Part shown: positions 27,009 through 56,860 of the stretch, piece by piece
Position numbering within the stretch: position 1 is the stretch's first letter
Layout of the letters: each line of letters begins with the position of its first letter
Assembly (NCBI GenBank): GCA_031459875.1
Contig: JAVKHQ010000005.1
Span: forward strand, 32,001-96,000
Length of the DNA: 64,000 bases
Source: Candidatus Fervidifonticultor sextus
GTDB taxonomy: Bacteria > Sysuimicrobiota > Sysuimicrobiia > Sysuimicrobiales > Humicultoraceae
Direction: 5' to 3'
Notes under the pieces: generated by a model
Databases searched by the model: none
Seen by the model: only the letters and a program-made list of their open reading frames with translations
Told to the model about the DNA's origin: nothing
Translations under genes and position numbers: made by a program

Positions 27009-27524
27009 TTAGGCTGGGCGGTGGGCTCGAGGCGGAGGGTCCGGAACGGGGAGGGGGATGGGCATGAGGCCCGGCGAGACCGGGCGGGCGACCCGTTCGG
27101 TCGGCGGTGGCGCTCCCGGCATCACTGTCGCTGGCGCCGTGGCGACGGCCAGGCCCGAGACGCTGAGGACCTGCGCGCCATGGGCGGTCCCGGGAAGGAC
27201 GGACACGACACGCGGCAGTTCAGAAATTCGTCGGCTGCCGTGCGGGGGCCACGCCGCGCTCTTCCCGTTCTCACCATGATGTCCGGGGGATCCGCGCTGC
27301 CGGTCGTGGCCGTGGCGACGGTGGTGGGCGAGCGCGTCGGCGCGCTGCGCAGGCGTACCGCCGATCACCACGTGCAGGTGGTACGGGTCGCGCTCCACCG
27401 CCTGCGTGTCGGCGACCGGGACGATCAGTCGCAAGACCATCGCCGGCAACGCAACCGCGGCCACAACCAGGAACGGACCCGGACGGCTTGAGCGATCTGC
27501 CGGCGCCGCGCGACATGGGAACAT
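27009..27524 (-). CDS. His-rich putative leader peptide, paralog 1 (HxHxVIGGTP ... VPDPPPR)
   Basis: Hydrophobic segment, then ERDPYHLHVVIGGTPAQRADALAHHRRHGH, PRVVSV and C-terminal VPDPPPRAHRPA; homologous to 54063.. and 56381..; start uncertain. Confidence 0.75.
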   Translation of the reverse strand: MFPCRAAPADRSSRPGPFLVVAAVALPAMVLRLIVPVADTQAVERDPYHLHVVIGGTPAQRADALAHHRRHGHDRQRGSPGHHGENGKSAAWPPHGSRRISELPRVVSVLPGTAHGAQVLSVSGLAVATAPATVMPGAPPPTERVARPVSPGLMPIPLPVPDPPPRAHRPA

Positions 27525-27931
27525 GCCTGGCCGGTGTTCGACAGTGGTAGGATGAAGTCCTCCCCCCTTCCAACCCGATGCAGACATGGACATCCGGACG
27601 ACGGCCCGCGGCAAGCGCGATGGCACCATCGTGCGCCACCTGCAGCTCGCCCACAACGAGCGGGGTCCGCGGACCGGAATGCCCCGGGCCCGCGTCCTGT
27701 CCCGGCAATCCGGGCCAACCTGGGAAGCGCCCGGAACTCCAAGGTGGCGGGCTCACCGGCCCTCACGACGACAGCCCGGGATGTGGGAACCACCGCCAGG
27801 TCGGCGGAGAACGCCACGACGTCCCACGCGCCCGGCACCACCCGCAGGTGGGCCCTCCCCGTCGCGTGTCCCGTGGTCATTGCACCGGCCCGCGCGTCAT
27901 GGCAGTGTCCCAGCTTCGATCATGGTCCGTA

Positions 27932-28561
27932 TCAGGGCTTCTGGCTGATAGCCAGCCGCCCGTACCTCTCTGGAAGGAACACGCCCACGTTCCGCGGCCA
28001 CCAGAAGCTGGGGCCACGGTCGTAGTTGTCCCAGTAGTGCAATCCGGTGGCCACCGTCCCGCCGAGTGCAACACCGATCTCCTCCAATGGGACCGACAGC
28101 TCGTACATCATGTGGCGCGCTGCGGGCGGGCCCATCGCCGCGCCCCGTGCGCGGCTGTCGAAGTGAAATGTCCGTCGGCCTCGCGCATCGATGCGGTCCG
28201 TGCGCAGCCGGCCGTCGCCATAGAGCCAGTAGCCGACCTCGCCCTTGAACCAGATGGCCATGTTGTCGAAGCCGGTGTGGGGAGGGCTGGACGCCGTGGT
28301 GTTGGTGATGTCGTGGATGGCGTCGACACCCACGTAAAGCCGCTCCGTATCGTTCATGACGAGGAAGACGCACCGCGCACCCCCATCGCGGCTGGCCAGG
28401 GTCAGGCGGGCCGCTGCCCGCCACTCGTCCTCTCCGACGACCCCGTCGATGTCAGGCGGCGTGACCGCGTAAGGACTCTGGAGCACCTCCTGCCCACCGG
28501 CTCCTCCCGCGAGGAGACCGGCGATCGCCAGAAGTGCGCCAGCGGCCCCGACCCGTCTCAT
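27932..28561 (-). CDS. Secreted hypothetical protein with CBM9/DOMON-like features
   Basis: Signal peptide; PPDIDGVVGEDEW, NDTERLYVG, YELSVPLEEIG. Confidence 0.6.
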   Translation of the reverse strand: MRRVGAAGALLAIAGLLAGGAGGQEVLQSPYAVTPPDIDGVVGEDEWRAAARLTLASRDGGARCVFLVMNDTERLYVGVDAIHDITNTTASSPPHTGFDNMAIWFKGEVGYWLYGDGRLRTDRIDARGRRTFHFDSRARGAAMGPPAARHMMYELSVPLEEIGVALGGTVATGLHYWDNYDRGPSFWWPRNVGVFLPERYGRLAISQKP

Positions 28562-28620
28562 ATCACCTGCTCCGGGTTTGGGACGCGGATGGGGGGCGTC
28601 CGTTCACGTTTGGTCCACCG

Positions 28621-29184
28621 CTATGGCATTCGTGGAATCTGCGACGCAGGCCAGAGACCATCGGCGGATCCCGCCGGGAAGACTTGCAAGTAGTAGACCG
28701 TATTGGCTGGTACGGGCAGCGGCACACCCGTTTGTGTGTAGCCGCCAATGGCTAACCCAATGTGGTCATACACGGCGACGATGAAACCGGTCCTGTCGCT
28801 GAGAAGCCAGCGGAAGCTGGGGGTGCCATATACCTGCCACGCGGTCTGAAGGGGAGTGCCCAAGGCCACACCCTCGGCTGTACGGAACCGGATCGCCTCA
28901 CCAGCCCCCTGGAGCAGCAGGGCTACCACTTGATCGGTGTCGCGACGGACGAGGGCAACGAGCGCCCAGCGCTGTCCCTGCGGTCCGAACGTCCATCCTA
29001 TGGCCGCGAGGGTCGGGTTGGCCGCCGCCCCCAGGTTCTGCGGGAGCCCCAGTTGCATGCGCAGTGCCGCGCCCGTCACGCCGAGCCGGTAGGGGCCGAT
29101 GCGGTCCCCAGGTACCATCACCGAGTCCTCCGGCGTGGCGGCGGCGCCTGGGAGCCAGGCGAAGGTGGCGCCTGCCAGCGTCAT
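28621..29184 (-). CDS. Secreted hypothetical protein, paralog of 29282..29764
   Basis: EDSVMVPGDRIGPYRLG and FRTAEGVALGTP shared with its neighbour; start uncertain. Confidence 0.65.
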   Translation of the reverse strand: MTLAGATFAWLPGAAATPEDSVMVPGDRIGPYRLGVTGAALRMQLGLPQNLGAAANPTLAAIGWTFGPQGQRWALVALVRRDTDQVVALLLQGAGEAIRFRTAEGVALGTPLQTAWQVYGTPSFRWLLSDRTGFIVAVYDHIGLAIGGYTQTGVPLPVPANTVYYLQVFPAGSADGLWPASQIPRMP

Positions 29185-29281
29185 GAGCAGAAGCGCGAGT
29201 CTCGTAGCGGGCGTCGAGCCGCCGCCGATCCGCCTGTGCGCAGGGTCGATGACGGGTGCTGGCGACCCAGGCGGTCTTTGG

Positions 29282-29764
29282 CTACTGGGATTTGTGATCA
29301 AAGACCCCAATGGCAATGATCCTGCCCTCTTTGGTCTGCACATAGAGCCCAATTCTCCAGTAGGCGCGCGCTTCGACATTTCCCGGATATTGGTGGCGCC
29401 ATTCCGGTCGACCGAAGCGGTCGAGCTCTGAACCAGGACTGCCAAGGCCGACGCCATCGGCCGTCCTGAAGACCCGGTTCGCCTCAGAGTCGAGGAGCGT
29501 CGCGGCCGAGACCGTGTGGGTCGCGTTGAAGAACGAGAAGTAGATACGCTTGTCCCGCCAGAGCATGCCGTAGGACTGAGGCATGGTGGTCGAACCTCGT
29601 TCCCCGACCGACCCCATCAGGCCGATCACGCCGGCCAGCGTCATGCCCAGATTGTAGGGTCCGATGCGTTTGCCAGGGACGATCAGGGTGCCGTCTTCAA
29701 CCTGCGCAGCGGCCAATGTGTGCGCCGCCAGGATGCTGACGAGAACCGCGAGTCCTTTCCGCAT
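29282..29764 (-). CDS. Secreted hypothetical protein
   Basis: Signal peptide (AAAQ); EDGTLIVPGKRIGPYNLG, FRTADGVGLGSP; SD GGAG. Confidence 0.72.
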   Translation of the reverse strand: MRKGLAVLVSILAAHTLAAAQVEDGTLIVPGKRIGPYNLGMTLAGVIGLMGSVGERGSTTMPQSYGMLWRDKRIYFSFFNATHTVSAATLLDSEANRVFRTADGVGLGSPGSELDRFGRPEWRHQYPGNVEARAYWRIGLYVQTKEGRIIAIGVFDHKSQ

Positions 29765-29899
29765 GACGCCACTCCACGAGAAGGTCGCGCCCGGTCACCC
29801 GGTCAGCTGACGGCCTACCTGTCTTGAATTGTTCAGCAGGCCCGGACGGCCCGCAAGGAGAAACATTCGCAAAACTTCGCAGGTCGTGGGGGACATCCG

Positions 29900-31258
29900 A
29901 TGCTCCGCCTCTCGCTCACGGACAGGCGGGTTACCGCAGAAGGGCGGCCGCTGGCCCTCAGCCCGGCGTTTTTCCAACTGTACTGCCTGCTGGCCTACGA
30001 GCGCGCCTCCGGCCGTGATCGGTTCGTCACCGTCCGCGACGTCCGGCGCCTCTCCCGGTGGGGACGAGCCACCCCCGACAGCATCGGGAAGAGCATTCAC
30101 CGCCACGTCCGCCGGGCGCAGCGCGCCGGATGGGACCTCATCGAGTCTCCGCCCAGGGCAGCGACGAAGTTGTTTCGGCTGAAGGACGCCCATGTCGTAT
30201 TCGATACGCCGCTGTCCGCCGTCGAGAGTTTCCTCGGCCTCGATCTCGCCGTCACGACTCCATCGTACCCGTGGCCCGGCGGGCGATCGCCGGCCGTCGA
30301 TAGGATGTTCAGGTTCTTGTGGGCGATGGTGCGGGCACGGATGGAGCTGGAGCGCGGCGACTTAGTCAGAGCCCGGTCCATGATCGAGGAGGCCGAACGG
30401 GTAGAAGGACAGCGCCCCAGAGACCGCATCCTGCTCCTCCTGCTGACCTCCAGCATCCTGGAGCACGAAGGGCGGTTCGACGAAGCGCTGGCGAAGGCGC
30501 AGGATGCCCTGGCAATGTGCCGCGCTCACGGCGGCGATTACCTGACGCTGGCCCGCGCCTGCATCCGGGTGGGGTTCCTGGGCGCAATGCTGCGGCAGCC
30601 GCACCGCTACGGGGAAGCCCGCGACCTGTACCTGGAAGCCCAGAGGCTCATCGAGGGTTCCCAGCACCTGATCGAGCTCTCGCAGATCGCCACGGGGCTC
30701 GGACATCTGGCTCGGAGGGCACACGATCTGGATGATGCGCTGGCCTACTTCATCCGCGCCCTCGAGTACGCCGCGGCGGAGGCCTGGGGGTGGGGCATTC
30801 AGGCAGGTCTGTTCAATCTGGGCCTGGTCCAGGCGGAGCGCGGTGACAGCCTGCAAGACCAGCGCGCCCGCCAGGCCGCCTACCTGGAGGCCCGCGCCTG
30901 GTTGGAGCGAGCGGTGGAGTTTGTGGACCGGACCGGCATCGGCCGGTATTCCAGCGAAGGGCTGTCGGTGATGGCCCACGTCCTGCTGCGCCTGGGCCGA
31001 GGTAGAGCGGCCGTCGTCTGGGCCAGAGCGGCCCTGGATCGCGCACGGGCGGTGCAGAACAGGAAGAGCCGGGCCGTGGCACTGGAAACCCTCGGAGAGG
31101 CCCTCTGCGCCATTGGTGACCGGGCAGAGGGAATCAGGGCGCTGCGGGAAGCATACTCCGAGTATGGGGCCATGGGCTTCGAGCCCGATGCCCGGCGCGT
31201 CCTGCACCTGATCGCTGAAGCCAGGAGCCGCCGGCGGGGCGGCAAGCCCCGACCGTGA
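29900..31258 (+). CDS. Putative regulator: winged-helix-like N-terminus plus TPR repeats
   Basis: N-terminus resembles OmpR-type wHTH ([22 protein letters not shown]); helical TPR-like repeats ([39 protein letters not shown]). Confidence 0.65.
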
Positions 31259-31283
31259 CGGTTACAGGCGGACAGGGGATGGC

Positions 31284-31868
31284 ATGAGCGGCACCGGCGG
31301 GAACATCGAGGTTATCTGCGGGAGTATGTTCAGCGGGAAGACTGAGGAGTTGATCCGTCGGGTGCGGCGCGCCCAGATCGCCCGGCAGCGGGTTCAGGTG
31401 TTCAAGCACGCGCTGGACGACCGCTACGCGGTCGGGGCGATCACCTCCCATGACGGCGGGCGCATCGAGGCGGTGCCGGTCACCACCAGCGCGGAGATCC
31501 TGGCGCAGGTGCATTCTGAGACCGGCGTGGTGGCCGTCGACGAGGTCCAGTTCCTCGACGACGGCATCCGCCAGGTGGCCCAGACCCTCGCCGCCCGCGG
31601 CGTCCGCGTGATCCTGGCCGGTCTGGATGTGGACTTTCGCGGCGAACCGTTCGGTCCGATGGGGTATCTGCTGGCGGTCGCCGAGGAGGTCACCAAACTG
31701 CAGGCCATCTGCATGATCTGCGGAGCGCCGGCCACCCGGACACAGCGCCTGGTGGACGGCCGGCCCGCGCACTACACCGACCCGGTGATCTTCATCGGCG
31801 CCGGCGAAGCCTACCAGGCCCGCTGCCGGCGCTGCCACGAGGTGCCGGGCCGGCCGGGCGAACCCTGA
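31284..31868 (+). CDS. tdk: Thymidine kinase
   Basis: [46 protein letters not shown]. Confidence 0.97.
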
Positions 31869-31924
31869 CTGTGCGGGTTCGCGGGCGGCTGGGGTCCCGT
31901 ACTATAATCGGGACGGTGAACTCG

Positions 31925-33004
31925 ATGGATGCCAGACTCAAGGCCCGCCTGGAGGCGCTGGAGGCCCGCTACGAGGCCCTGGCGGCCCAGATGGCCGACC
32001 CGGCGGTGCTGGCGGATCAGGCCCGCTACCAGGAGGCGGCGCGGGAGTACGCCGAACTGGAGGGGACGGTGACGCGTTTCCGCGCGTACCGCGAAGCCAG
32101 CCGCCAGGCCGCCGAGGCCGAGGCGATGGCGCGGGAGGAGGCCGACCCCGACCTCCGCGAAATGGCGAGGGGTGAGGTCGCCCGGCTGGCGGAACGGCTC
32201 GCCGGCCTGGAGGCCGACCTCCAGCGCCGGCTGCTGCCGCCTGACCCCCTCGACGAGCGCCACATCATCGTCGAAATCCGGGCCGGGACCGGCGGCGACG
32301 AGGCCGCGCTCTTTGCCGGGGACCTGCTCCGCATGTACACGCGCTACGCCGAGCGCCACCGCTGGAAGTCCGAGGTGCTCTCGGCGAGCCCGACCGGCAT
32401 CGGGGGGTTCAAGGAGGTCGTCGTGGCCATCGCCGGCCGGGGCGCCTACAGCCGGCTGAAGTACGAGAGCGGCGTCCACCGCGTCCAGCGGGTCCCGGTG
32501 ACCGAGTCGTCCGGCCGCATCCACACCTCCACGGCGACCGTGGCGGTCCTGCCCGAGGCTGAGGAAGTGGACGTCGTCGTCCGGCCCGAGGACCTGGAGA
32601 TCGAGACCTACCGGGCCGGGGGGGCCGGGGGCCAGAACGTCAACAAGGTCGAGACGGCGGTCCGCATCAGGCACCGGCCCACCGGTCTGGTCGTGACCTG
32701 TCAGGACGAGCGCTCGCAGTTCCAGAACCGCGAGAAGGCCATGCGCATCCTGCGGGCGCACCTGCTGGAGCGGGCCGAGCGCGAGCAGGCCGAGGCGATC
32801 GCGAGGCAGCGCCGCCAGCAGGTGGGCACGGCGGAGCGCAGCGAGAAGATCCGGACCTACAACTTTCCCCAGAACCGGGTCACCGACCACCGCATCGGTC
32901 TCAGTCTCCACCGGCTCGAGACTGTGCTGGACGGCGACCTCGACGAGTTGATCGAGGCCCTCACCGCCGCCGATCGGGCCGCCCAGCTCGCCGCGGTGGA
33001 CTGA
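31925..33004 (+). CDS. prfA: Peptide chain release factor 1
   Basis: [23 protein letters not shown] (PxT), [30 protein letters not shown] at 31903. Confidence 0.97.
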
Positions 33005-33028
33005 TCCCCCGGGAACCTGACTGCCGCC

Positions 33029-33886
33029 GTGAGGACCGTCGCCGAGGCCTGGATGGCCGGCCGCGAGCACCTGGCCGCATTGGGCGTGGAGGAGGCCGCG
33101 ATCACCGCGGAAGTCCTGCTCCGGCACGCCCTGGGCTGGACCCGCACCGAACTCTATCTGGCCTGGCACCGCCCCCTCGACGAGGCGGCCTGGACGCGCT
33201 TCCAGGCCCTCCTGGACGCCCGGGCGGCAGGACGGCCGGTGGCATATATCGTCGGCCGGCGGGAGTTCATGGCACTGGACTTTCTGGTGGATGAACGGGT
33301 CCTCATCCCCAGGCCCGAAACCGAGGTGCTGGTGGAGGCGGCGCTGGAGGCGGTCCGCGACGTCCCGGCACCGGCCATCGCCGACATCGGCACCGGCAGC
33401 GGCGCTATCGCCGTGAGCCTGGCGGTCCTGCGTCCGGACGCCGCCATCGTCGCCACGGACCTCTCCCAGGATGCCCTGGAGGTGGCCCGGACCAACGCCG
33501 ACCGGCACGGCGTGGCCGACCGGATCCGCTTCCTCCAGGGCGACCTGTTAGCCCCGGTCGCCGCCGCCGGCATGCGCCTGGACCTGGTGGCCTGCAACCC
33601 CCCCTACGTCTCCCCTGAGGCGGCGGGGGGGCTGCCCAGGGAGATCCGGGAGTTCGAGCCGGCCGTCGCGGTGGTGGCTCCCGGGGACCCCCTGGACCTC
33701 CACCGCCGGCTGGTCACCACGGCGCCCGGGGTCCTGCGGCCACGAGGCTGGCTGGTGGTGGAGGTCGGAGCAGGCCAGGCCCCGCGTGTGGTCGAACTGT
33801 TCAATCAGGCGGGCGCCTACGAGGCTCCAGTCACAAGACGGGATGGCCTCGGGTGGGATCGGGTCGTGGCCGCGCGCATCCGGTGA
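33029..33886 (+). CDS. prmC: Release factor glutamine methyltransferase
   Basis: VLIPRPETE, DIGTGSGAIA, NPPY; follows prfA. Confidence 0.95.
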   Translation: MRTVAEAWMAGREHLAALGVEEAAITAEVLLRHALGWTRTELYLAWHRPLDEAAWTRFQALLDARAAGRPVAYIVGRREFMALDFLVDERVLIPRPETEVLVEAALEAVRDVPAPAIADIGTGSGAIAVSLAVLRPDAAIVATDLSQDALEVARTNADRHGVADRIRFLQGDLLAPVAAAGMRLDLVACNPPYVSPEAAGGLPREIREFEPAVAVVAPGDPLDLHRRLVTTAPGVLRPRGWLVVEVGAGQAPRVVELFNQAGAYEAPVTRRDGLGWDRVVAARIR

Positions 33887-33889
33887 GCC

Positions 33890-34387
33890 ATGAATGAGAA
33901 AGGCCGACCGGCGAACTACTACGCGCTCACCTTCCAGCCGGCGGTGGATCGATCTCAGGAGCCCATCGTGATCCTCCGAGTGGATCCGCGCGATGATGCC
34001 GTGCCGCGCAGGGCGGTGGAGGTGCTCCGCGCAGGCGGGCTGATCGTCTTTCCCGCCGACGACGGCTACCTGGTCGGGTGCTCGGCGCTGGATCCTGAAG
34101 CGGTCCAACGGCTGTGCGAGGTCACCGGTGTCAGGCGCGAGGCCCTCACCTATTTCGCCGGCTCGCCGGAGCACGCCGCCCGCCTGGACGCGCCGACCCG
34201 CCCGCTCCACCATCCCGTACCGCTGGCGCTGATGCGCGCCACCGGAGTGCCGCTGGCGGCGACGCCCTGCCGGCCCGATGGGCCACCGGCGCCGTCGGCC
34301 CAGCACGCCGTCTTCATCCTGGGGGACGCCGCGGATCTGGTTTTGGACGCCGGACCGATCCGGCAGCCGGCTCCCGCAGGCAGGTAA
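33890..34387 (+). CDS. Short, degenerate Sua5/YrdC/TsaC family protein
   Basis: AVEVLRAGGLIVFPADDGYLVGC, HPVPLALMRATGVPLAAT, DLVLDAG; syntenic position after prmC. Confidence 0.7.
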   Translation: MNEKGRPANYYALTFQPAVDRSQEPIVILRVDPRDDAVPRRAVEVLRAGGLIVFPADDGYLVGCSALDPEAVQRLCEVTGVRREALTYFAGSPEHAARLDAPTRPLHHPVPLALMRATGVPLAATPCRPDGPPAPSAQHAVFILGDAADLVLDAGPIRQPAPAGR

Positions 34388-34391
34388 GACC

Positions 34392-34847
34392 GTGCGCATC
34401 GTGATCGGAGGTGACCACGCGGGGGTGCTCCTCAAGGCGGAGATCGCGCGCCTGCTGCTGGAACTGGGTCACGAGGTGCGAGATCTGGGTACCAACACCG
34501 TGCAGCCGGTGGACTACCCCGACTACTGCATCCCGGTGGCCGAGGCGGTCGCGCGCGGGGAGGCCGATCGGGGCATCATCTTCGGCGGGACGGGCAACGG
34601 CGAGGCCATGGCGGCCAACAAGGTGATGGGGATTCGATGCGCCGTCTGCCACGATGTCACCACGGCGCGCCTGGCGCGATCCCACAACGACGCCAACATG
34701 CTCGCGCTGGGCGCCCGGATCGTGGGGACCGAGGTCGCCAAGGAGATCGTCCGGACGTTCCTGGCAACCCCGTTTGAAGGGGGACGGCACATCCCGAGGA
34801 TCGAGAAGATTCACAGGTACGAGCGGGAGCGCAGGCTCCCGCCGTAG
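34392..34847 (+). CDS. rpiB: Ribose-5-phosphate isomerase B
   Basis: GGDHAG, VDYPDY, GGTGNGE, ANKV, HNDANMLALGAR, FEGGRH. Confidence 0.95.
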   Translation: MRIVIGGDHAGVLLKAEIARLLLELGHEVRDLGTNTVQPVDYPDYCIPVAEAVARGEADRGIIFGGTGNGEAMAANKVMGIRCAVCHDVTTARLARSHNDANMLALGARIVGTEVAKEIVRTFLATPFEGGRHIPRIEKIHRYERERRLPP

Positions 34848-35300: not shown

Positions 35301-35321
35301 GCTCCACCGGCAACAGGAGTG

Positions 35322-48684: not shown

Positions 48685-49323
48685 ATGGGCCGGTGGCGCG
48701 CGCTCGCCGCGTTCGATGTCGTCTTCCTGGCCCTGAGCCTGCTGGCGCCCGGGGCCGTGGGCACGCGGTGGTGGCGCCGGCAGGCCTCGTGGCGCTACCG
48801 GAGGCTCGCGCCCCACTACGACGCGAAGATCATCGCGCGGACCCCGGGATACCGCGCTCCCCTGGAGGCGGCCCTGGGGCGGTTGTCGCCTCCGTATGGG
48901 CGCATCCTCGACGTCGGCACGGGCACCGGCACCGTGGCCCTCGAAGTCGCGCGTCGTTTCCCCGGCTCGTGCGTGTGCGCGTGCGACGTCTCAGGGGAGA
49001 TGCTGCGCGTGGCCCGCCAGCGGGCGCAGGGGCTGGGCCTGCGGATCGCCTGGCAGCAGGCGAACGGGACGAGGCTGCCCTACCGGAATGCCAGCTTCGA
49101 CCTCGTCCTCCTGCAGAACGCGCCGCCGGCCTTCGCGGAGCTGGCCCGGGTACTGAAGCCCGGGGGGACCCTGGTCTTGTGTTTCACCAAGGGCGGCGGG
49201 CTCCCCGGGTTCCTCGAGCGCCGCCTGGTCCGACGGCTGGGAGCGCTGGGGATTCCGGTGGTGGAACTCCGCCGGGTCGCAAGCGGGCTCTACGTCCTCG
49301 CGCGCCGGTCGGCCGGTTCGTAA
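48685..49323 (+). CDS. Class I SAM-dependent methyltransferase
   Basis: ILDVGTGTG, LPYRNASFDLV, ELARVLKPGG. Confidence 0.88.
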   Translation: MGRWRALAAFDVVFLALSLLAPGAVGTRWWRRQASWRYRRLAPHYDAKIIARTPGYRAPLEAALGRLSPPYGRILDVGTGTGTVALEVARRFPGSCVCACDVSGEMLRVARQRAQGLGLRIAWQQANGTRLPYRNASFDLVLLQNAPPAFAELARVLKPGGTLVLCFTKGGGLPGFLERRLVRRLGALGIPVVELRRVASGLYVLARRSAGS

Positions 49324-49914
49324 CTATCGGCCCTCCAGGAGCGCTCGCGCGTCCGCCGCGAGGTCTGCGGCCAGAACGCCCCATGGATACGAGAACCGGA
49401 TCGTCCCGTGCCGGTCGATGAGGTAGATCGCCGTGGCATGGCCGATGCGGGCGTCCTCACCCGACCCGGCCGCCGCGTAGGGAGCGGGATAGACATTGAA
49501 CGCCCGGTAGAGACGCGCCAGGACCTCTCGCGCGCCGGTGAGGCCGACGAAGTCCGGGTGGAAGATCGAAACGTACCAGCGCAATCGCTCGGGCGTGTCG
49601 CGATCCGGATCAGTGGTGACGAAGAGCACGCGCACGTGCGCCGCGTCCACCCCGAGCAACGCCCGTGCCTGTCTGAGGGTGACCAGCGTGGTCGGGCATA
49701 CGTCGGGACAGAGCGTGTAGCCGAACGCGAGGAACACCACCATGCCTCGCAGCGCATCGAGCGAGAACGGGCGACGGTGACCATCGAGCAGGGTGACCGC
49801 TGCCGGGAGCGGTTCGCGGACCGGCAGCCCGCGGAAGGCCGGTGGGGCCGCCCGCAGGCAGGCCCCACCCAGCAACGTCAGGCCCACGAGCGCGCAGGCC
49901 CACACCCCGCGCAT
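49324..49914 (-). CDS. SCO family copper chaperone lipoprotein, copy 3 (more divergent)
   Basis: Lipobox LGGAC, FGYTLCPDVCP, DPDRDT, IGHA. Confidence 0.92.
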   Translation of the reverse strand: MRGVWACALVGLTLLGGACLRAAPPAFRGLPVREPLPAAVTLLDGHRRPFSLDALRGMVVFLAFGYTLCPDVCPTTLVTLRQARALLGVDAAHVRVLFVTTDPDRDTPERLRWYVSIFHPDFVGLTGAREVLARLYRAFNVYPAPYAAAGSGEDARIGHATAIYLIDRHGTIRFSYPWGVLAADLAADARALLEGR

Positions 49915-49915
49915 C

Positions 49916-50299
49916 TCAGGGGACCACCCGGAGCGTCGCCTGCATCCCGGCTTCCCGGTGCCCGGGGATGCTGCAGTACACCACGTAGGCTCCCGGCGCC
50001 AACCGGGCTTTCACCTGCACGGTCTTGCCGGCAGGGAAGGGTTTGGCCTCCGCGACAATCTTCTTCGCCGCATTCTCGACGACAAAGTCGTGCTCGACGG
50101 CTCCGGCGTTCCGCACAGTGAATGTGACCTCGCCGGCCTTCGCCAGCAGGTCCCTGGGTTCGTAGACGAACTCCCGGGCGACCACGGTCACCGACAGGGA
50201 GGGCGAGGCGGGCGGCGGTGCCGGAGCCGCCGATGGCGTGTGTGCCGCGGTCATCCCCAGGATCGTCAGCGCCATGCCAACCCGGCGTACGATACGCAT
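49916..50299 (-). CDS. Small secreted type-1 blue copper protein (cupredoxin)
   Basis: Signal peptide; NAGAVEHDF and YCSIPGHREAGM (H, C, H, M ligands). Confidence 0.9.
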   Translation of the reverse strand: MRIVRRVGMALTILGMTAAHTPSAAPAPPPASPSLSVTVVAREFVYEPRDLLAKAGEVTFTVRNAGAVEHDFVVENAAKKIVAEAKPFPAGKTVQVKARLAPGAYVVYCSIPGHREAGMQATLRVVP

Positions 50300-50328
50300 G
50301 CTGAACCCCTCCGATCTGGACCGCGCCG

Positions 50329-51849
50329 TCAGTGCGCCGGCCGCGGCTTGATGACGAGGACCCCGTTGCCACCCCAGGCGTCCGGCCCCAGGTGGACGTC
50401 CCCCGCCTTCCGCGGGGGAGAGACGGATAGGTCGACCACCGTGAGTACCGGCGCGTACTTGTTGGTCACGTAGGCCAAAAACCCGCCGCCCTGCTTGAAG
50501 CCGTAGGCCACGCCGTGGGCGCCCTTGTACGCCGGCACTTCGCTGACGACCCGAATCTTCGATGGATCGTCGTAGTCGACCGCGATCACGCTGGCGTTGG
50601 CGGTCCCGGTGTTGGCCACGACGACGTAGCGGCCGTCCGGGCTGAACGGCGACTGAATGGGCACGGCGCCGACCCGCACGATCTTGACCACCTTGGGGTT
50701 CTTCGGATCGCGCAGGTCCTGGAAGATCAGGCGGCCCTGGAGGAGCTTGTCGTGGGTCAACAACACGGTGGTGGTGACCGCGTAGCGCTTGTTGGGCGAG
50801 ATCGCCGCGTACAGAGGCAGGTTGGCGCCGAATGCCTTCCCGTCGAGATCGGTCACCTTCGACAGGTCCACCGTGGTCAGCACCTTCTCCGCGTCCAGGT
50901 CGATGATCGACATCTGCCCCGAGAGCGCGTTCGCGACGACCATGAGCTTGCCGTCGGGCGAGATCCAGCCGCCGTGCGGTCCGAGGGGCACCTCGATGTA
51001 GCGCACCGGGACCTGGGCCGCCGGTACGGCGGGATCCACCGCCTTGACGAGATCGAGCACGGCAATCCGGTTCGCCGCGTTGATGGTCACCACGACCTTG
51101 CCCTGGGGCGTGGTGTGGGTGTGCGCGGGGGACTCGCCGACCGGGATGCGGTTCTTGACGATGCGCCGGGTCCGGGCGTCGATGATGGTCAGGTAGTTCT
51201 GATGCCAGTTGGTCTGGACGACGTAGCGCTCGTCCCAGGAGACCATGGCGTTGTGCGGGTTGTTGAAGTCGCCGTCGATGACCGCCTTCACCTTCATCGT
51301 GGCGGCATCCACCACCGTGACGGTGCCCGGCGCCTCGCGGTTGGGTCGGGTCTGGAACTGCGTGTCCACCCACACCTCGCCTCGGCCTCGCACGCGCGGT
51401 GGCACCAGGCCGGTGGGGCTGGCCGGCGGCCACGGCTTGATGAACTGCGGCAGGGGGTTCGCGCCGACCGCGATCTGCCCGTCCATGTAGGGATGGATGG
51501 CGCAGACGTAGACGTAGACCCCCGGCTTGGTGAACTGCTGGCGCGCCGTGCCCTTGCGGCCCACGATGGTGATGGTCTTCGCCGGTTCGTCGAAGCCGGT
51601 GAGGAAGGTGATGGTGTGGAGCGTCCGGGCATCAGAGAACGACCAGACGACCTCGTCGCCCGGCTCCACGCGCAGCGTCTGTGGGAAGAACCACGGCGCG
51701 AACTCGCTGACGACGACGGCGTTCTTTGGCAGGGCGGGCGGTGGCGCGCCGCCCGGGGCCTCGGGCGCGGAGCGCGCGATCCCGGCCGGCCCGGCGATCA
51801 CCGCGGCCGCGATGGCGAACACCAGCAGGCTCCTGCTCAGCGTCGGCAT
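50329..51849 (-). CDS. Secreted cupredoxin plus His-rich YVTN-type beta-propeller protein
   Basis: Signal peptide; HTITF and YVCAIHPYMDG; propeller blades with NPHN, PAHTHT, GPHGG, SPDGK, SPDGR, GAHGV, YVTN. Confidence 0.8.
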   Translation of the reverse strand: MPTLSRSLLVFAIAAAVIAGPAGIARSAPEAPGGAPPPALPKNAVVVSEFAPWFFPQTLRVEPGDEVVWSFSDARTLHTITFLTGFDEPAKTITIVGRKGTARQQFTKPGVYVYVCAIHPYMDGQIAVGANPLPQFIKPWPPASPTGLVPPRVRGRGEVWVDTQFQTRPNREAPGTVTVVDAATMKVKAVIDGDFNNPHNAMVSWDERYVVQTNWHQNYLTIIDARTRRIVKNRIPVGESPAHTHTTPQGKVVVTINAANRIAVLDLVKAVDPAVPAAQVPVRYIEVPLGPHGGWISPDGKLMVVANALSGQMSIIDLDAEKVLTTVDLSKVTDLDGKAFGANLPLYAAISPNKRYAVTTTVLLTHDKLLQGRLIFQDLRDPKNPKVVKIVRVGAVPIQSPFSPDGRYVVVANTGTANASVIAVDYDDPSKIRVVSEVPAYKGAHGVAYGFKQGGGFLAYVTNKYAPVLTVVDLSVSPPRKAGDVHLGPDAWGGNGVLVIKPRPAH

Positions 51850-51915
51850 GACGACACCCCCGTTCGTCAGGTGATCGTGCGGTCTGACAGCGTGCACTCG
51901 GACCTCTTGCATGGC

Positions 51916-52587
51916 TCATCTCGCCGCCTGGACGAACGTCCTCCATGTGCGCGCCGCGCCTGCGGCGGAGGCCGGCGCGTGGTCGGGACAGTCGATCCGC
52001 AGGGCGCGGTCGCCGAAGGCGGCGTCCACGAACGCACAGTGATGCGGGCGGGCGGGATCGGCGTGCACGTGCGGCCGAAAGTACCGGCAGGTGACGCACA
52101 TCCGGCTCGGGGCGATCTGCCCAGACTCCTGGAGGGCGCGGATCACCTTCACCAGGGCGCGCAGCAGGGCGGCCTGCTCGGTTACCCCGAGCGTGTCGAC
52201 CGCAGCGTGCACGGCTTCGCCCCAGCTCAACGCCCGACCCGCTTCGCGACGACCCGCGGGTGTGAGGACAATGAGCCGGCCACGGCCGTCGCCACCGACG
52301 GCGTGCTTGGCGACAAGCCCTTTCCGCGCCAGGGTGGTGACCGCCTGGCTCGCGCTCGCCCTGGTGACGCCCAGCGCGGCCGCGACGGCGGAGAGGCGCT
52401 GGCCACCGGGATGGCGGCGCAACATGGTGAGGATCAGCCCCTGCGTCGGCGTGAGGCCGCGTGGCCCGGCGCCACGCCACGACGCCTGCCGCAGCGCCAG
52501 AGCGATCCTGCTCAGGCCGGCGGTGACGCGTTGCCGCAGGGGCTCGCCGTCGACCTCAACCCGGGTGAACGCCGACCTGGAGACCAT
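51916..52587 (-). CDS. MarR family regulator with C-terminal 4-Cys motif
   Basis: GLTPTQGLIL, GVTRASASQAVTTLARKGLV, DGRGRLIVLTPAG; RMCVTCRYF..HHCAF..IDCPDH; SD AGGAG before ATG 52587. Confidence 0.88.
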   Translation of the reverse strand: MVSRSAFTRVEVDGEPLRQRVTAGLSRIALALRQASWRGAGPRGLTPTQGLILTMLRRHPGGQRLSAVAAALGVTRASASQAVTTLARKGLVAKHAVGGDGRGRLIVLTPAGRREAGRALSWGEAVHAAVDTLGVTEQAALLRALVKVIRALQESGQIAPSRMCVTCRYFRPHVHADPARPHHCAFVDAAFGDRALRIDCPDHAPASAAGAARTWRTFVQAAR

Positions 52588-52837
52588 GTTGGTTAAGTCT
52601 CCTAACGACTCGTTGCCTCCCGGGTTCGACACAGAGGTCGAGGTTCCTGCACGCCTCCGACGGACCGCGGAGGCACGCCAACCTTCGGGCCAGTGGACGC
52701 CCGCCAAGAGGGGGCCGCCACGGGCGCCGGCACCGGGGAGCATGATGTCGCTCTCCGGGACAGGGCCGTGGGTGATCCCGCGGGCGCGATTCCTCGGTTG
52801 GTCGGCGGGTGCGGGCCCGGCGCCGTCCGGCCGAAGG

Positions 52838-53347
52838 TCAGGGCGCCGCCATTCGCACCGGCACCCGGACCGCCACCGCCCCGGCCTGCTCGAAGTGCAG
52901 CGTCGCTGTGAACCGATCCCCCTCCCGAAGGTCGCGCTTGAGGCCAAGCAGCATGATGTGGAGGCCGCTTGGCCGCAGCGTCACCCGGCCGCCCGCGGGC
53001 ACCACAATAGCCGGCAGCTTGTGCATGCGACTCATGCCGCCCTCCATGCGCGTCTCGTGGAGCTCCACGGCGGCGGCAACGTCGGTCTCGGCACGCACCA
53101 GACGATCACCCCTCGGTCCGGTGTTGTGGATGGTCATGTAGATCGCCGACGTGCCGGGGCCCATGGCCATGGTGGTCCCGTGGGCACCGGCGGGAGCCGC
53201 GATGCCTGGCCGCGCCTAGGCGTCCTCGATGCGGATAGGCGAGGCCGGCGGCGCCGCTTCGCTGGCAGCGATGGCGGCCATGAACACCACTGCGGTGAAG
53301 AGGGCCGTGCCTCGCAGCCACGAGATTCTCAAGCACATCAAGTCCAT
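52838..53347 (-). pseudogene. Copper chaperone PCu(A)C, copy 2, interrupted by an in-frame TAG
   Basis: Signal peptide, then IRIEDA-[TAG 53218-53216]-ARPG where copy 1 has IEKA-W-ARPG; ELHETRMEGGMSRM...GLHIML intact. Confidence 0.85.
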
Positions 53348-53396
53348 ACTCATCACTCCTTTCCAGCCCGCACCAATGCCAAGTCGGGCGTCGAGC

Positions 53397-53972
53397 CTAG
53401 TGCCGCAACAGCTGCCGGATGTCGTGTACCAGGTCGTCCGCGGTGGCCTCGTGGCTCAGATTCAGACGCCAGCGGCCCTGCCGGTCGATGACGGCGATGT
53501 TCGCCGAGTGCGCCACGAGGTACCCCGCCGCGCTCTTGGGCACCGGGACCTTCTCGAACGCCGCGCCGAAGAATCGGTACGTGGTGGTCAGTGCGTCCGG
53601 GGGGCCCGCCAGGCCCACGAACTCCGGATGGAACAGCCGCAGGTACCGGTCGAGGAACGCCGGCGTGTCGATTTCCTGGTCCACCGTGACGAATACGAAG
53701 CGAACCCGTGCGGCATCCGCCCCGAGCCTCTCGGCGACCTGGCGGAAGACCCCGAGTACGAGGGGGCAGACATCCGGGCACCGGGTGTACCCGAAGAAGA
53801 TCAGGACGACCCGACCCCGCTGCCCGGCCAGGTTGAACGGGTGCCCATGTTGGTCGGTGAGCGTGAGCGCCGGCACCGGACGGGGAGGATCGAGCACGCG
53901 GCCCCGGAAGGTCGGGCGCTGGCAGGCTGAGACCAGCAGCACCAACAGGCCGACGGCGATCCATCTGGACAT
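53397..53972 (-). CDS. SCO family copper chaperone lipoprotein, copy 2
   Basis: Lipobox LVSAC, FFGYTRCPDVCP, VAHS; near-identical to copy 1 (e.g. DTPAFLDRYLRLF, FFGAAF). Confidence 0.94.
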   Translation of the reverse strand: MSRWIAVGLLVLLVSACQRPTFRGRVLDPPRPVPALTLTDQHGHPFNLAGQRGRVVLIFFGYTRCPDVCPLVLGVFRQVAERLGADAARVRFVFVTVDQEIDTPAFLDRYLRLFHPEFVGLAGPPDALTTTYRFFGAAFEKVPVPKSAAGYLVAHSANIAVIDRQGRWRLNLSHEATADDLVHDIRQLLRH

Positions 53973-54062
53973 GGGTGACCTCCCTCGAAAAGCGTTCAGC
54001 GCGGCACACGTCACGGCGTCCCCGCCGATGGGGCGGAGCGCGGGCCGCAGTGACCTCGGTGA

Positions 54063-54581
54063 CTAGGCGAGAGGGTCTGGTCGGGGCGGGGGATCCGGGA
54101 CGGGAATGGCGACCCGGGCGACGCGCGGCGGGGCCAGACCTGCGATCTGTCCGGTGGCCCGGGGGGCGGGGGGCCCCGCAGGCGCCGCCACCGTTGCGAC
54201 CGACAGGCCGGTCGTGCTCAGGACCATCGCGCCCGAGGCAGTCCCGGGAAGGACCGACACGACGCGCGGGACTTGGGGGTCGCCCTGGGCCATTCGTTGG
54301 GTCTGCCCCCCGCCCGTCCAGTGTCGTCCCGGATGTCCGGCGGAGCCGTGCGGTCTGTCGTGGTCGTGGTGACGGTGGTGGGCGAGTGCTTCAGCGCGCT
54401 GCGCGGGGGTGCCGCCGATGACGAGATGCAGGTGGTAGGGATCGCGCTCCACCGCCTGCGTGTTGGCGATGGGCAGGATCAGCCGCGCGATGGTCACCAG
54501 CAACAGGCCCGTGCCCGCAGCCTGGCGTGGCGACGAGCGATCCCAGCGGGCGACCAATGTCGCGCGAGGCACGAGCATCAT
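54063..54581 (-). CDS. His-rich putative leader peptide, paralog 2
   Basis: Hydrophobic segment, ERDPYHLHLVIGGTPAQRAEALAHHRHHDH, PRVVSV, C-terminal VPDPPPRPDPLA. Confidence 0.78.
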   Translation of the reverse strand: MMLVPRATLVARWDRSSPRQAAGTGLLLVTIARLILPIANTQAVERDPYHLHLVIGGTPAQRAEALAHHRHHDHDRPHGSAGHPGRHWTGGGQTQRMAQGDPQVPRVVSVLPGTASGAMVLSTTGLSVATVAAPAGPPAPRATGQIAGLAPPRVARVAIPVPDPPPRPDPLA

Positions 54582-54594
54582 GCTGTACCCGCTC

Positions 54595-54624
54595 ATTATA
54601 GTCGGTCGCCGCACCAGCGTGCAA
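54595..54624 (-). promoter_or_regulatory. Sigma70-type promoter TTGCAC-N18-TATAAT for leader-SCO-PCuAC cassette 2
   Basis: Minus strand -35 at 54624-54619, -10 at 54600-54595; ATG 13 nt downstream. Confidence 0.7.
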
Positions 54625-54710
54625 CGCACAGAGGGGAGGAGAGGGGCGGACGCACCCGGGGAAGTCACGTCCCGTCGCCGGGAGAGATCGCGGCAGGTCG
54701 CGTGAACTCG

Positions 54711-55625
54711 TTAGCGCGTCTTCAGGTAGCGGAGAAGCCCCAGCGCGCTCAGCCGCGTGGACATGATCGTCTCGAACCGGGCCACGCGGTCTGGCCCGTC
54801 GAGCCGGGCGGCTTCGACCGCCATCACGTGGCGCATCCGGCGCGCGATCGCGTCTTCATCAGCGCCGTCCTCCAGGGCCACGCGGACCAGTTCCACCGCC
54901 GCGTGCAGGCGCTGCTGCAACTGCGCCAGCAGCTCCTCGACCCAGGTGTGCGCGCCGAAGTGCGTCAGCAGGAGCCGCCGCGCTCCAAGCCCCTGCAGGC
55001 GCCCGATGGTGGCATCCCACGCCGGGACGTCGAGTTCGGGGGGTGGGGTCGGGGGGCGGACGTAGCGGGATCCCGGCAGCGCCACGCCGGCCGCGTCCCC
55101 GGTGAAGAGGTCCCCGGAGGCGCGATCGAAGTAGACGACGTGATGACGGGCGTGGCCGGGGGTATCGAAGACGGCCAGCCGACGCGACCCCAGCAACACC
55201 TCCGCCCCCTCGCCGATGACGCGGATCCGCTCGTGGGGCACCGGGGCCACCTCGCCGAAGAGCCGCTCCAGGTCCGCGCCGTACAGCCGCCGGGCGCTGG
55301 CCATCAGCCGCGAGGGATCCGCCAGGTGGGGCGCGCCCACCGGGTGCACGTAGACCTCCAGATGCGGGAACCGACGCACGAGGACGCCGGTGGCGCCCGC
55401 ATGGTCCAGGTGAATGTGGGTCACGGCCAGGGCCTGGAGGTCTTCGGGCTCCACCCCCGCGGCCCGCACGCTCTCCAGGAGGGTCTCCACGGTAGACGCC
55501 GGCCCGGTCTCGATCAGGGCCGGCCGGTCGCCCGTCAGCAGGTAGGCGCCGATGGCCTGCGGGGTCCCTTCGTAGTCGGTGTCAATCAGAACGAGATCGT
55601 CGGCCAGGCGTTCGATGCGCGGCAT
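54711..55625 (-). CDS. MBL-fold metallo-hydrolase
   Basis: THIHLDHAGA, TPGHARHH, FTGDAAG, THFG. Confidence 0.92.
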   Translation of the reverse strand: MPRIERLADDLVLIDTDYEGTPQAIGAYLLTGDRPALIETGPASTVETLLESVRAAGVEPEDLQALAVTHIHLDHAGATGVLVRRFPHLEVYVHPVGAPHLADPSRLMASARRLYGADLERLFGEVAPVPHERIRVIGEGAEVLLGSRRLAVFDTPGHARHHVVYFDRASGDLFTGDAAGVALPGSRYVRPPTPPPELDVPAWDATIGRLQGLGARRLLLTHFGAHTWVEELLAQLQQRLHAAVELVRVALEDGADEDAIARRMRHVMAVEAARLDGPDRVARFETIMSTRLSALGLLRYLKTR

Positions 55626-55726
55626 GGGTCGTCCCCCGGTGAGCGTCCGGCATCACAATAACACAGCCGGATGTGGTATGCTCACCTGCGAGATTGCCAC
55701 GCGAGCCTCAGGTGAGGGGTTGCGGC

Positions 55727-56377
55727 ATGTCACCAGGCGGCAAGGCTACCCGGGAGGCGAAGCGACAGCGCCGTGAGGCGGCGCTCGCGGCCCGGCGCGA
55801 AGAGCAGCGTCGGCTCCAGGCCCGGCGGCGACGGCGGGCGCTGGCCGTCTACGGGGGCATCGCCTTGATCGTGGTGGCCGGCGTGGGGTTGCTGACGCTC
55901 TCGGCGCTCCGCCCTCAGTCCAGCATCTTGGGTGCCATCGGCGGCTTCGGGAAGCCGTCTGGCCTGGAGGGGGTCCAGGTGTTTGCGGACCAGGGCGCGG
56001 CCCACATCACCCTGGGCCAGGCGCACCCTCCGTACAACTCCAATCCGCCCACCTCGGGATGGCACACTCCCTTCACCGCCCCCTGGGGAGTGCACCGCAC
56101 GTCGATCGCGGACGAGATCATCGTCCACAACCTGGAGCACGGCGGCATCTGGATTTCATACAGGGACGCATCCGACACGGCGCTGGTGGAGAGGCTGGAA
56201 GCCCTGGTGTCCCGCTACCGCTCCAAGGTGATCCTGACGCCGCGGTCCAATAACGACAGCCGGATCGCCGTGGCCGCCTGGACGCGCCTGCTGAAACTCG
56301 ACGAGTACGACGAGCGGAAGATCGTGGCCTTCATCAACGCCTTCAAGAACAAGGGACCGGAGATGGTCCCTGACTGA
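55727..56377 (+). CDS. DUF3105 domain membrane-anchored protein
   Basis: Basic N-terminus plus TM; YNSNPPTSGWH, VHNLEHGGIWISY, AAWTRLL, GPE. Confidence 0.85.
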   Translation: MSPGGKATREAKRQRREAALAARREEQRRLQARRRRRALAVYGGIALIVVAGVGLLTLSALRPQSSILGAIGGFGKPSGLEGVQVFADQGAAHITLGQAHPPYNSNPPTSGWHTPFTAPWGVHRTSIADEIIVHNLEHGGIWISYRDASDTALVERLEALVSRYRSKVILTPRSNNDSRIAVAAWTRLLKLDEYDERKIVAFINAFKNKGPEMVPD

Positions 56378-56380
56378 GCG

Positions 56381-56860
56381 GTGGAGGACCGGCGGCTGAT
56401 GGAGGCTGCACGTTGCGCCAGGGCGGCGGCCGTGGTCACGCGCCCGGTCCGAACGTCTCTGCTCCCCGTGTTCCTGGTCATCGTCCTTCTTGGTGCTTTC
56501 GATCCGGGTGCGGGGGAGCGGGGTCCTTCGCACGCACACATCGTAATCGGTGGCACCCCGGACGAGCAGGCGCGAGCCCTCGCTGCCCATTTGCGGGGCG
56601 CGCACTCGTCGGCCACCTCCCACGCCTGGCATGTGCTCTTCCGGGCCTCCGACGAGGCGACAGACCACCCCCACGTGATCTCCATCAGCACGGGTGCGGT
56701 CGGTGCCTCCGTCCTCGGAGTCGGCGACGGGACCATGGTGGCCGCGCCCGCCAGCCGGGTGCCCCGCGCACCGCTGTCCGGCCGGGTTGTGCCCCTGCAG
56801 TCCGCGGCGCCGGCCGAAGCCGATCGGACCGTCCCTGATCCGCCTCCTCGCCTCACCTGA
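56381..56860 (+). CDS. His-containing putative leader peptide, paralog 3
   Basis: Hydrophobic segment, ERGPSHAHIVIGGTPDEQARALAAHLRGAH, PHVISI, C-terminal VPDPPPRLT. Confidence 0.75.
   Translation: MEDRRLMEAARCARAAAVVTRPVRTSLLPVFLVIVLLGAFDPGAGERGPSHAHIVIGGTPDEQARALAAHLRGAHSSATSHAWHVLFRASDEATDHPHVISISTGAVGASVLGVGDGTMVAAPASRVPRAPLSGRVVPLQSAAPAEADRTVPDPPPRLT

Follow-up and report, generated by a model that had tools for sequence, protein, structure and literature searches.

Nascent-chain copper sensors and the locus under study

Nascent-chain sensing of extracytoplasmic copper is known from two proteobacterial DUF2946 proteins, CutF and CruR. CutF is exported co-translationally, binds copper by a CxxxC motif and stalls at a C-terminal PPP, overriding EF-P, and the stalled ribosome opens a stem-loop that otherwise covers the cutO ribosome-binding site (10.1101/2025.02.05.636593). 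CruR carries the arrest motif RAPP three residues before its end, and copper bound via CXXC relieves the arrest, which leads to Rho-dependent termination before a copper importer gene (PMC9426467). A survey lists 5,334 CutF-like proteins, with PCuAC-like chaperones among the commonest neighbours, few members from Chloroflexota, and two clusters with His only that adjoin HupE/UreJ (PMC9973294). Polyproline is the strongest stalling motif, and Asp ahead of a diprolyl motif also stalls the ribosome (PMC4176338). Here we analyse 64,000 nucleotides (nt) of Candidatus Fervidifonticultor sextus (contig JAVKHQ010000005.1, positions 32,001 to 96,000; hereafter the window), in which three open reading frames (ORFs) with an N-terminal hydrophobic segment, a histidine module and a terminal VPDPPPR motif each precede a set of copper genes.

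We propose, with a probability of about 0.65, that these ORFs are co-translational copper switches of the CutF/CruR type that are not detectably DUF2946. A preliminary description of the window, made from its letters alone, had already suggested analogous leaders; the suggestion is supported here computationally, with predicted Shine–Dalgarno pairing, codon choice and a fixed-length tether as added lines of evidence.

Three paralogous candidate leader ORFs precede copper operons

The three leader ORFs (copies 1, 2 and 3; Table 1) are paralogs. Aligned over their whole length, copies 2 and 3 are 46% and 36% identical to copy 1, and 44 columns are invariant, including ERxPxHxHxVIGGTP, AxALAxH, PxVxS and VPDPPPR; the Arg of PPPR is followed by five, five and two residues in copies 1, 2 and 3. 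The preliminary description had reported the three ORFs with this common layout, and their ends are confirmed, as are the internal ATG starts of copy 1 (27524) and copy 2 (54581) in the sequence, with two candidate starts left for copy 3. It had also described the third paralog as more diverged and still motif-keeping, in agreement with its 36% identity to copy 1 and the invariance of the motifs. The leader-to-next-start spacers of 95, 90 and 101 nt, each with a GGGAGG or GGAGG Shine–Dalgarno sequence, separate the leaders from copper operons as it had said, and Pfam identifies SCO1/SenC and then PCuAC twice and, after a secreted His protein, CopC, CopD/cytochrome c and a PD40 protein once. 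Neither CxxC nor CxxxC could be read from the alignment in any of the three copies, and the His-based site that it had put in their place is represented by three invariant His in the family alignment described below.

These three are the only leader copies in the whole genome, and all of them lie inside the window. PPP occurs within the last 10 residues of 34 of the 4129 candidate ORFs of the genome and is by itself not rare; a chance layout is ruled out because homologs in other genomes repeat the same layout. Leader copy 3 begins 4 nt past the end of the DUF3105 gene. Ahead of leader copy 2, a perfect TATAAT (54595-54600, minus strand) ends 13 nt before the ATG, with no Shine–Dalgarno sequence between, and this copy may be translated from a nearly leaderless messenger RNA. 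A consensus promoter scan called no promoter, at this TATAAT because the −35 element is weak.

A candidate leader family in Sysuimicrobiota and Chloroflexota

No Pfam-A or NCBIfam model matches the three leader copies. A word-indexed search of 5.8 billion proteins returned seven matches to the leader, including one from the window itself. Ten sequences were then made into a profile (A2), which picked up 121 proteins at E ≤ 0.001 among 1.84 billion cluster representatives (69 at E ≤ 1e-10); their length is nearly always 125-185 amino acids (aa), and one match of 3281 aa with 16 matching stretches (P0078) was taken as a low-complexity false match. The family is thus Pfam-less and appears to be undescribed, in line with the candidate new family of the preliminary description, and some members may already stand in the CutF-like protein list of PMC9973294.

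Alignment A3 comprises 84 sequences, namely the three window copies and 81 of the matches P0001-P0095. It leaves out the window duplicates P0002 and P0008, everything weaker than P0095, and the fragments or sequences with odd ends (P0047, P0051, P0057, P0063, P0065, P0067, P0078, P0081, P0087, P0088, P0090 and P0091). H49, H51, H68, P164 and P165 (copy 1 numbering) are invariant in A3, and P47, G55, L65, V106, P163 and R166 are conserved in at least 90% of the sequences. Most tails read (D/E)PPPR with two further residues, and the terminal PPPR, whose conservation had been predicted, is nearly invariant as (D/E)PPPR. In a Pfam scan at E ≤ 1, the 84 members share no common family; DUF2946 appears once, at E 0.32, and exceeds the Pfam cut-off in 0 of 94 genomes of the phylum, so that comparison with DUF2946 gives no detectable kinship.

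The close relatives are Candidatus Fervidifonticultor, of the phylum Candidatus Sysuimicrobiota. A leader match is present in 25 of the 94 phylum genomes at E ≤ 0.01 and in 21 at E ≤ 1e-6; the tally of 25 counts one weak match in genome G016, on which nothing rests. A back-translated pattern in International Union of Pure and Applied Chemistry (IUPAC) code hit 89 stretches in 185,579 species genomes. Eighty of these were scanned and 15 hold a true member, 11 from the known phylum set and four from metagenome-assembled genomes (MAGs) of Anaerolineae in the Chloroflexota (L103, L116, L129 and L146); the remainder are three weak matches (E > 1e-5) and chance hits, many from Mesorhizobium. A genome scan with a closer alignment gave two metagenome loci (L057 and L058). 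The leader diverges faster than its neighbours, with 50-61% identity where the same pairs show 76-86% for SCO1 and 70-77% for PCuAC, as expected because the middle of the leader would need only its length.

Copper genes follow the leader

Gene neighbourhoods were surveyed at 22 phylum loci, using ORFs of at least 75 aa with a signature in GC content at third codon positions within 4.5 kb (342 of 343 ORFs scanned). The homolog ends in PPP(R/E) in 21 of the 22 loci, and 20 are assessable downstream. In all 20, copper genes come immediately after the leader on its own strand, which, together with three Anaerolineae and two metagenome loci, bears out the copper neighbourhood that had been predicted for homologs. 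SCO1 and then PCuAC follow in four of the 20 (L036, L047, L055 and L056), and in the other 16 the genes are those of CopC and/or CopD, carrying cytochrome c, YtkA or FixH domains. The CopC/CopD-type loci usually start with a secreted protein of 145-220 aa that belongs to no Pfam family and has a mature N-terminal His. At L051 the sequence stops 59 nt past the leader, with a Shine–Dalgarno sequence and an ATG visible 46 nt downstream.

In the Anaerolineae, copper genes lie downstream in three loci. The leader is followed by CopC in L146 and by a lipoprotein and two CopC genes in L103; the order is SCO1, leader 4 nt later, His protein and CopC-CopD in L129, and L116 has SCO1 and the leader, then the beginning of a His protein. 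SCO1 precedes the leader by 4-10 nt in L129:2363-2830 (plus strand) and L116:224-691 (minus strand). Read by eye against the window proteins, the metagenome loci are leader-SCO1-PCuAC (L057) and leader-His protein-CopC (L058). One phylum copy departs from this pattern: L053:6250-6729 (plus strand) keeps the His module, reads ...PPSPRGQ..., runs past the usual stop and has lost PPPR. It has no copper gene nearby, its genome retains a canonical copy (L049), and its appearance is that of a paralog in decay.

The strict association with copper chaperones would also suit an accessory protein, anchored in the membrane or secreted, that binds copper and works in trans with Sco, PCuAC or CopC/CopD; PDPPPR would then be a structural or docking element, and the RNA pairing described below would be a by-product of Pro codons being rich in C. 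We consider such a protein unlikely, and the accessory and leader roles could both hold. The size of 125-185 aa fits a mature copper binder, and the leader is not the first gene of its operon in copy 3, L129 and L116; both facts tell against a leader function. The PPPR-less copy at L053, having left the copper context, speaks for a leader rather than an accessory protein, as does the conserved position of the motif just upstream of the Shine–Dalgarno sequence across spacers of 36-219 nt.

A histidine module on a tether of fixed length

The N-terminus has a hydrophobic segment after basic residues (best 17-aa window, mean Kyte-Doolittle 2.17). For the whole leader, AlphaFold2 (AF2) with A3 gives a mean predicted local distance difference test score (pLDDT) of 70 and a predicted template modelling score (pTM) of 0.39, and places helices at residues 17-38 and 58-71 (the latter ending at H68) and strands at 50-54 (HxHVV) and 105-109. 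Confidence is moderate at residues 21-70 (pLDDT 75-92), high at 151-171 (79-91), and low in the linker and at 111-150. A conserved strand-helix unit of this confidence with three invariant His would suit an accessory copper protein, and it weighs against a purely regulatory role.

The two spacings on either side of the strand behave differently. From H68 to V106, the His-rich linker varies from 21 to 53 residues (standard deviation 5.7 in A3), whereas V106, in the strand R-V-x-S, stands 55-59 residues ahead of P164 (standard deviation 1.0) in 80 of the 84 A3 sequences, those that keep the anchors. The tether between them is held to length and not to sequence, because columns 99-168 of A3 have 0-3 gaps nearly throughout (14 and 37 in two columns), although the information content of columns 129-157 is as low as 0.5-1.9 bits. 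The distance to the C-terminus is also narrow: among 101 sequences with both HxH and PPP[RKEQIW], the middle Pro is trailed by 3-7 residues in 92, with four in 61, five in 15, seven in 10 and three in 4.

The ribosomal exit tunnel holds about 30 residues, and the pull of a hydrophobic segment peaks when its end is roughly 30-40 residues away from the peptidyl-transferase centre. Within the tether, a 17-residue window of weak hydrophobicity (mean Kyte-Doolittle 1.44; ≥ 1.6 in 30% of the members) ends a median of 31 residues ahead of the middle Pro, and by analogy these numbers fit such force profiles. The tethers of L129 and L116 have a strongly hydrophobic, transmembrane-like stretch with overall length unchanged.

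The models suggest that the tether is without a globular fold. When the last 71 residues were modelled alone (28 locus-derived sequences), PDPPPR kept a pLDDT of 80-90 at a pTM of 0.21; its confidence thus reflects local geometry and not packing on the His module, because it persists in the isolated end. Foldseek found no match to the leader in the PDB at E ≤ 0.001. The ESM Atlas model of leader copy 2 has a pLDDT of 0.50, an Atlas search by structure gave only template modelling scores of 0.30 or below, and a search by features gave unnamed clusters and, in four of 30 matches at 0.93, CzcI (PF28244), which is a lead only. The known periplasmic copper chaperones CopC, PCuAC, SCO1 and CusF show no sequence or fold match in Pfam, NCBIfam and the PDB. 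A last part of about 60 residues that is fixed in length, poorly conserved and predicted without a fold, together with the low Atlas confidence and the lack of a structural match in the PDB, argues against an accessory protein.

Predicted pairing of the leader end with the next Shine–Dalgarno sequence

Minimum-energy folds of the three window spacers pair the next Shine–Dalgarno sequence with the leader's last codons or stop region (Table 1). The RNA set comprised 24 loci, the three window copies and 21 PPP-bearing phylum loci with spacers of 36-219 nt, and the controls were 200 adjacent same-strand gene pairs of this genome with a GGAGG Shine–Dalgarno sequence and a spacer of 30-220 nt. By partition function, the Shine–Dalgarno core pairs with the span of a PPP-paused ribosome at a probability (P) of at least 0.5 in 20 of the 24 loci against 11% of the controls, and with the D-PPP-R codons in 14 of the 24 against 6%. 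When the span is widened to run from 9 nt ahead of PPP to 5 nt beyond the stop, the counts are 21/24 and 26/200, with a Fisher's p of 1e-13 that overstates the contrast, the loci being related. In the four Chloroflexota loci P is 0.86, 0.10, 0.50 and 0.80 (three of four at ≥ 0.5). Long exact helices are formed in L046 (13 bp), L041 (11 bp) and L036 (11 bp).

Codon choice points in the same direction. Loci with a GGAGG Shine–Dalgarno sequence mostly write the Pro codons as CCN-CCU-CC, and those with a G-rich, A-less one (L045, L050 and L044) use C-rich Pro codons without U. CCT serves as the middle Pro codon in 14 of the 24 loci, and 17 contain CCTCC, against a genome background in which CCT accounts for 6.5% of Pro codons and 12.5% of PPP middle codons (n = 329). 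When the last codons are exchanged at random for synonyms, the mean pairing probability falls from 0.81 to 0.48 (Wilcoxon p 6e-7). Such a CCT bias and such an effect of synonymous recoding are unexpected for a motif that works purely at the protein level, as in an accessory protein.

Several points weigh against this regulatory interpretation. The RNA structures are all predictions, made in GC-rich sequence, and downstream starts were set by a Shine–Dalgarno rule and corrected by hand in four loci. Recoded sequences still pair above the controls (mean P 0.48 vs 0.14), as an accessory protein would allow, and the pairing is partly brought by the peptide itself because Pro codons are C-rich. For the window copies alone, the fraction of recodings that pair at least equally well is 0.10, 0.12 and 0.25, which is not significant, and by duplex energy it is 0.64, 0.53 and 0.84. 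Whole-spacer fold z-scores are ordinary (−1.04, +0.48 and −0.62). The raw duplex energy between leader end and Shine–Dalgarno sequence hardly differs from the controls (−20.9 vs −19.1 kcal/mol); it was tried as a test of anti-Shine–Dalgarno pairing, did not separate the family from the controls and was replaced by the partition-function probabilities. In copies 1 and 2 and in L036, the Shine–Dalgarno partner sits in the longer five-residue tail, outside PPP, and three of the 24 loci (L039, L040 and L049) lack pairing of the leader end with the Shine–Dalgarno sequence.

The predicted pairing would suffice for plain translational coupling without metal sensing, in which translation of the leader opens the masking hairpin, the histidines have some other function and PPP slows the ribosome at a constant rate. 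EF-P is encoded in the genome; it would normally relieve PPP, a further point for such coupling, and its presence also counts for the switch proposed here. Coupling of this kind leaves unexplained both the invariant three-His module with its 55-59-residue spacing to PPP and the exclusive copper context with a PPPR that is near-invariant over the 121 cluster representatives, and we judge it improbable.

Transcriptional attenuation of the CruR type as the sole mechanism, with a paused ribosome keeping Rho off the C-rich leader end, appears more improbable still, and we give it very little weight. It has in its favour that CruR works in this way (PMC9426467), that Rho is encoded on the window's contig and that the 3′ part of the leader is C-rich through its Pro and Ala codons. 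Rho loading needs unstructured RNA, whereas the spacers are predicted to be strongly structured; the spacers contain no intrinsic terminators, which likewise counts against it. Rho attenuation shares the stalling step with the switch proposed here and could act alongside RNA masking.

A proposed co-translational copper switch

In the switch that we propose, the ORFs would regulate in cis, as leaders comparable to CutF and CruR but assembled from other parts. The N-terminal hydrophobic segment would target the nascent chain to the membrane, so that the three-His module becomes exposed outside the cytoplasm, and the ribosome would pause at (D/E)-P-P-P-R, about 57 residues past the last conserved strand of the module and 2-5 codons before the stop. 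The paused ribosome would then cover or adjoin the nucleotides that otherwise pair with the Shine–Dalgarno sequence of the next gene, and SCO1, or the secreted His protein heading CopC/CopD, would be translated only during the pause. Copper on the His module would alter the tension on the nascent chain and thereby how long the ribosome pauses. The comparisons themselves show a family with invariant residues and a fixed spacing, its gene neighbourhoods, predicted pairing at the RNA level and a codon bias; that the chain is exported, binds copper, stalls the ribosome and acts in cis, and in which direction it controls the next gene, is what we infer. The direction of control is the weakest of these steps; by analogy we favour CruR logic over CutF logic, that is, a long pause and expression when copper is absent, and release with a masked ribosome-binding site when copper is bound, because the genes in question function in copper uptake and in building cuproenzymes.

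More tentatively, the leader may be a mechanical copper gauge, in which the His module folds or stays outside the membrane depending on copper, its fixed-length tether, with the weakly hydrophobic stretch about 31 residues before the stall point, passes the pull on to the PPP-paused ribosome, the nine bases of the CCN-CCU-CCN codons serve both as peptide brake and as anti-Shine–Dalgarno lock, and the whole evolved independently of DUF2946 in Sysuimicrobiota and Chloroflexota. Taken together, we regard this combination as possible but doubtful.

Comparison with described arrest systems

CutF, of the Rhodobacter capsulatus cutFOG operon, is among the closest described counterparts (10.1101/2025.02.05.636593; PMC9973294). 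An exported nascent protein, an extracytoplasmic metal site and a C-terminal PPP would be common to both, and a stem-loop over the next ribosome-binding site in a short intergenic region is predicted here as well, within reach of the stalled ribosome. The leader family differs in its three invariant His in place of CxxxC and shows no detectable sequence kinship with CutF; it precedes SCO1/PCuAC and CopC/CopD genes where CutF precedes a multicopper oxidase; its PPP codons are often themselves the predicted Shine–Dalgarno partner, and it has the fixed tether; and its phyla are Sysuimicrobiota and Chloroflexota. Under the definition of CutF-like proteins in PMC9973294, which asks for fewer than 150 aa, the window copies are too long (171, 172 and 153-159 aa) and some family members are short enough; a C-terminal Pro motif is present, with PPP 3-6 residues from the end in the window copies, and the downstream context agrees, with copper genes after spacers of 36-219 nt.

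The preliminary description had taken PPP for a departure from the known arrest motif, and this part falls, since CutF itself stalls at a C-terminal PPP. Of the novelty that it had attached to His, the new family stands, whereas His-only CutF-like clusters and PCuAC neighbours had already been described in PMC9973294. Those His-only clusters neighbour HupE/UreJ (Ni/Co), in contrast to the copper genes next to the present family.

[quoted passage not shown] CruR uses CXXC and RAPP, Rho-dependent termination over an unstructured region and a signal peptide that is dispensable, whereas the present family has three His, PPPR and a structured spacer with predicted Shine–Dalgarno masking. SecM, VemP and MifM also combine an N-terminal signal or anchor with a C-terminal arrest at which the stalled ribosome opens a structure hiding the next ribosome-binding site, and the length of their arrest is set by the pulling force on the nascent chain (general background and, in part, 10.1101/2025.02.05.636593). 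Their task, as generally understood, is to monitor the machinery of secretion or insertion, with secA, secDF2 or yidC2 as the controlled genes, whereas the leader family is found with copper genes only and has conserved putative metal ligands.

Downstream operons and other features of the window

The features of the three leader loci are listed in Table 1. In operon 2, an in-frame TAG within the PCuAC frame (52838-53395, minus strand) replaces a Trp of copy 1 (EKAWARPG vs EDA*ARPG), and the protein read from the next ATG (53170) is without a signal peptide; the interrupted copy may be a pseudogene or a strain variant, or the assembly may be wrong here. Between the PCuAC and cupredoxin genes of this operon lies a MarR-type regulator (51916-52560, minus strand) whose C-terminal extension is rich in Cys and His; it may be a transcription factor that senses metal and works beside the leader. 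Next come a 527-aa protein that combines an N-terminal cupredoxin with a beta-propeller (50329-51912, minus strand; weak match to a lactonase-type nitrous-oxide reductase, 64.5 bits vs a cut-off of 700) and a small cupredoxin with EfeO/CopI-like matches (49916-50302, minus strand); these two may be the cuproenzymes served by operon 2.

The secreted His protein of operon 3 has no NCBIfam family, and its one Pfam match, DUF5559, is sub-threshold (E 0.005, 17.2 bits vs a cut-off of 25). Its family recurs between leader and CopC/CopD in L039 (5850-6497), L045, L048, L050, L022 and L129, with a mature end H-(E/Q)-(T/E/N)-(K/R)-x-VG...EP, and has neither a Pfam or NCBIfam family above cut-off nor a PDB relative. 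From its position, it may be a YcnI-like partner of CopCD. A Rho gene lies at about 21814-23043 of the window (plus strand; G000:C45:53814-55043), about 4 kb from leader copy 1.

Table 1. Leader ORFs, predicted pairing elements and adjoining genes in the window
Feature	Position	Strand	Remarks
PCuAC copper chaperone, copy 1	25759..26328	-	PF04314, E 4e-33
SCO1/SenC, copy 1	26329..26913	-	PF02630, E 4.7e-36
Shine–Dalgarno GGGAGG of SCO1 copy 1	26920..26925	-	6 nt before ATG 26913
Stop-codon stretch of leader copy 1	27005..27015	-	Pairs with SCO1 Shine–Dalgarno in minimum-energy fold; P = 0.83 for Shine–Dalgarno pairing with the leader 3′ end
Leader copy 1	27009..27524	-	171 aa; N-terminal hydrophobic segment, H49/H51/H68 module, His-rich linker, PRVVSV strand, tether, PDPPPR + 5 aa
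PPP codons of copy 1 (CCT CCG CCT)	27030..27038	-	Contain CCUCC
PCuAC, copy 2	52838..53170	-	Frame upstream broken by TAG at 53216-53218
SCO1/SenC, copy 2	53397..53972	-	PF02630, E 1.6e-35
Shine–Dalgarno region of SCO1 copy 2, CGAGGGAGGUC	53977..53987	-	ATG at 53972
Leader copy 2	54063..54581	-	172 aa; PDPPPR + 5 aa
AGACCCUCUCG, tail codons of copy 2	54068..54078	-	Predicted partner of SCO1 Shine–Dalgarno; P = 0.80
PPP codons of copy 2 (CCC CCG CCC)	54084..54092	-	–
DUF3105 protein	55673..56377	+	Pfam; directly upstream of leader copy 3
Leader copy 3	56381..56860	+	159 aa from GTG 56381 or 153 aa from ATG 56399; PDPPPR + 2 aa
PPP codons of copy 3 (CCG CCT CCT)	56840..56848	+	Contain CCUCC
Last codons and stop of copy 3	56847..56860	+	Predicted partner of next gene's Shine–Dalgarno; P about 0.78-0.79
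Shine–Dalgarno region of secreted His protein	56943..56957	+	GGGAGG at 56948-56953; GTG start 56962
Secreted His protein	56962..57396	+	144 aa; mature N-terminus HQTKVVGG; no family over cut-off
CopC	57377..57856	+	PF04234; start uncertain
CopD fused to cytochrome c	57878..59581	+	Pfam
PD40 / TolB-like beta-propeller protein	59587..60621	+	Pfam

Implications

By sequence, the family appears to be a three-His analogue of CutF and CruR in Sysuimicrobiota and Chloroflexota, the principle itself being already known. If the proposal is true, the same principle would operate with three-His ligands in deep-branching, uncultivated, thermophilic lineages, ahead of SCO1/PCuAC and CopC/CopD genes. The fixed tether and the use of stall codons as a Shine–Dalgarno mask would then offer a handle on how force, metal binding and RNA structure are coupled, and about 120 clusters of 'hypothetical proteins' could be given an annotation name.

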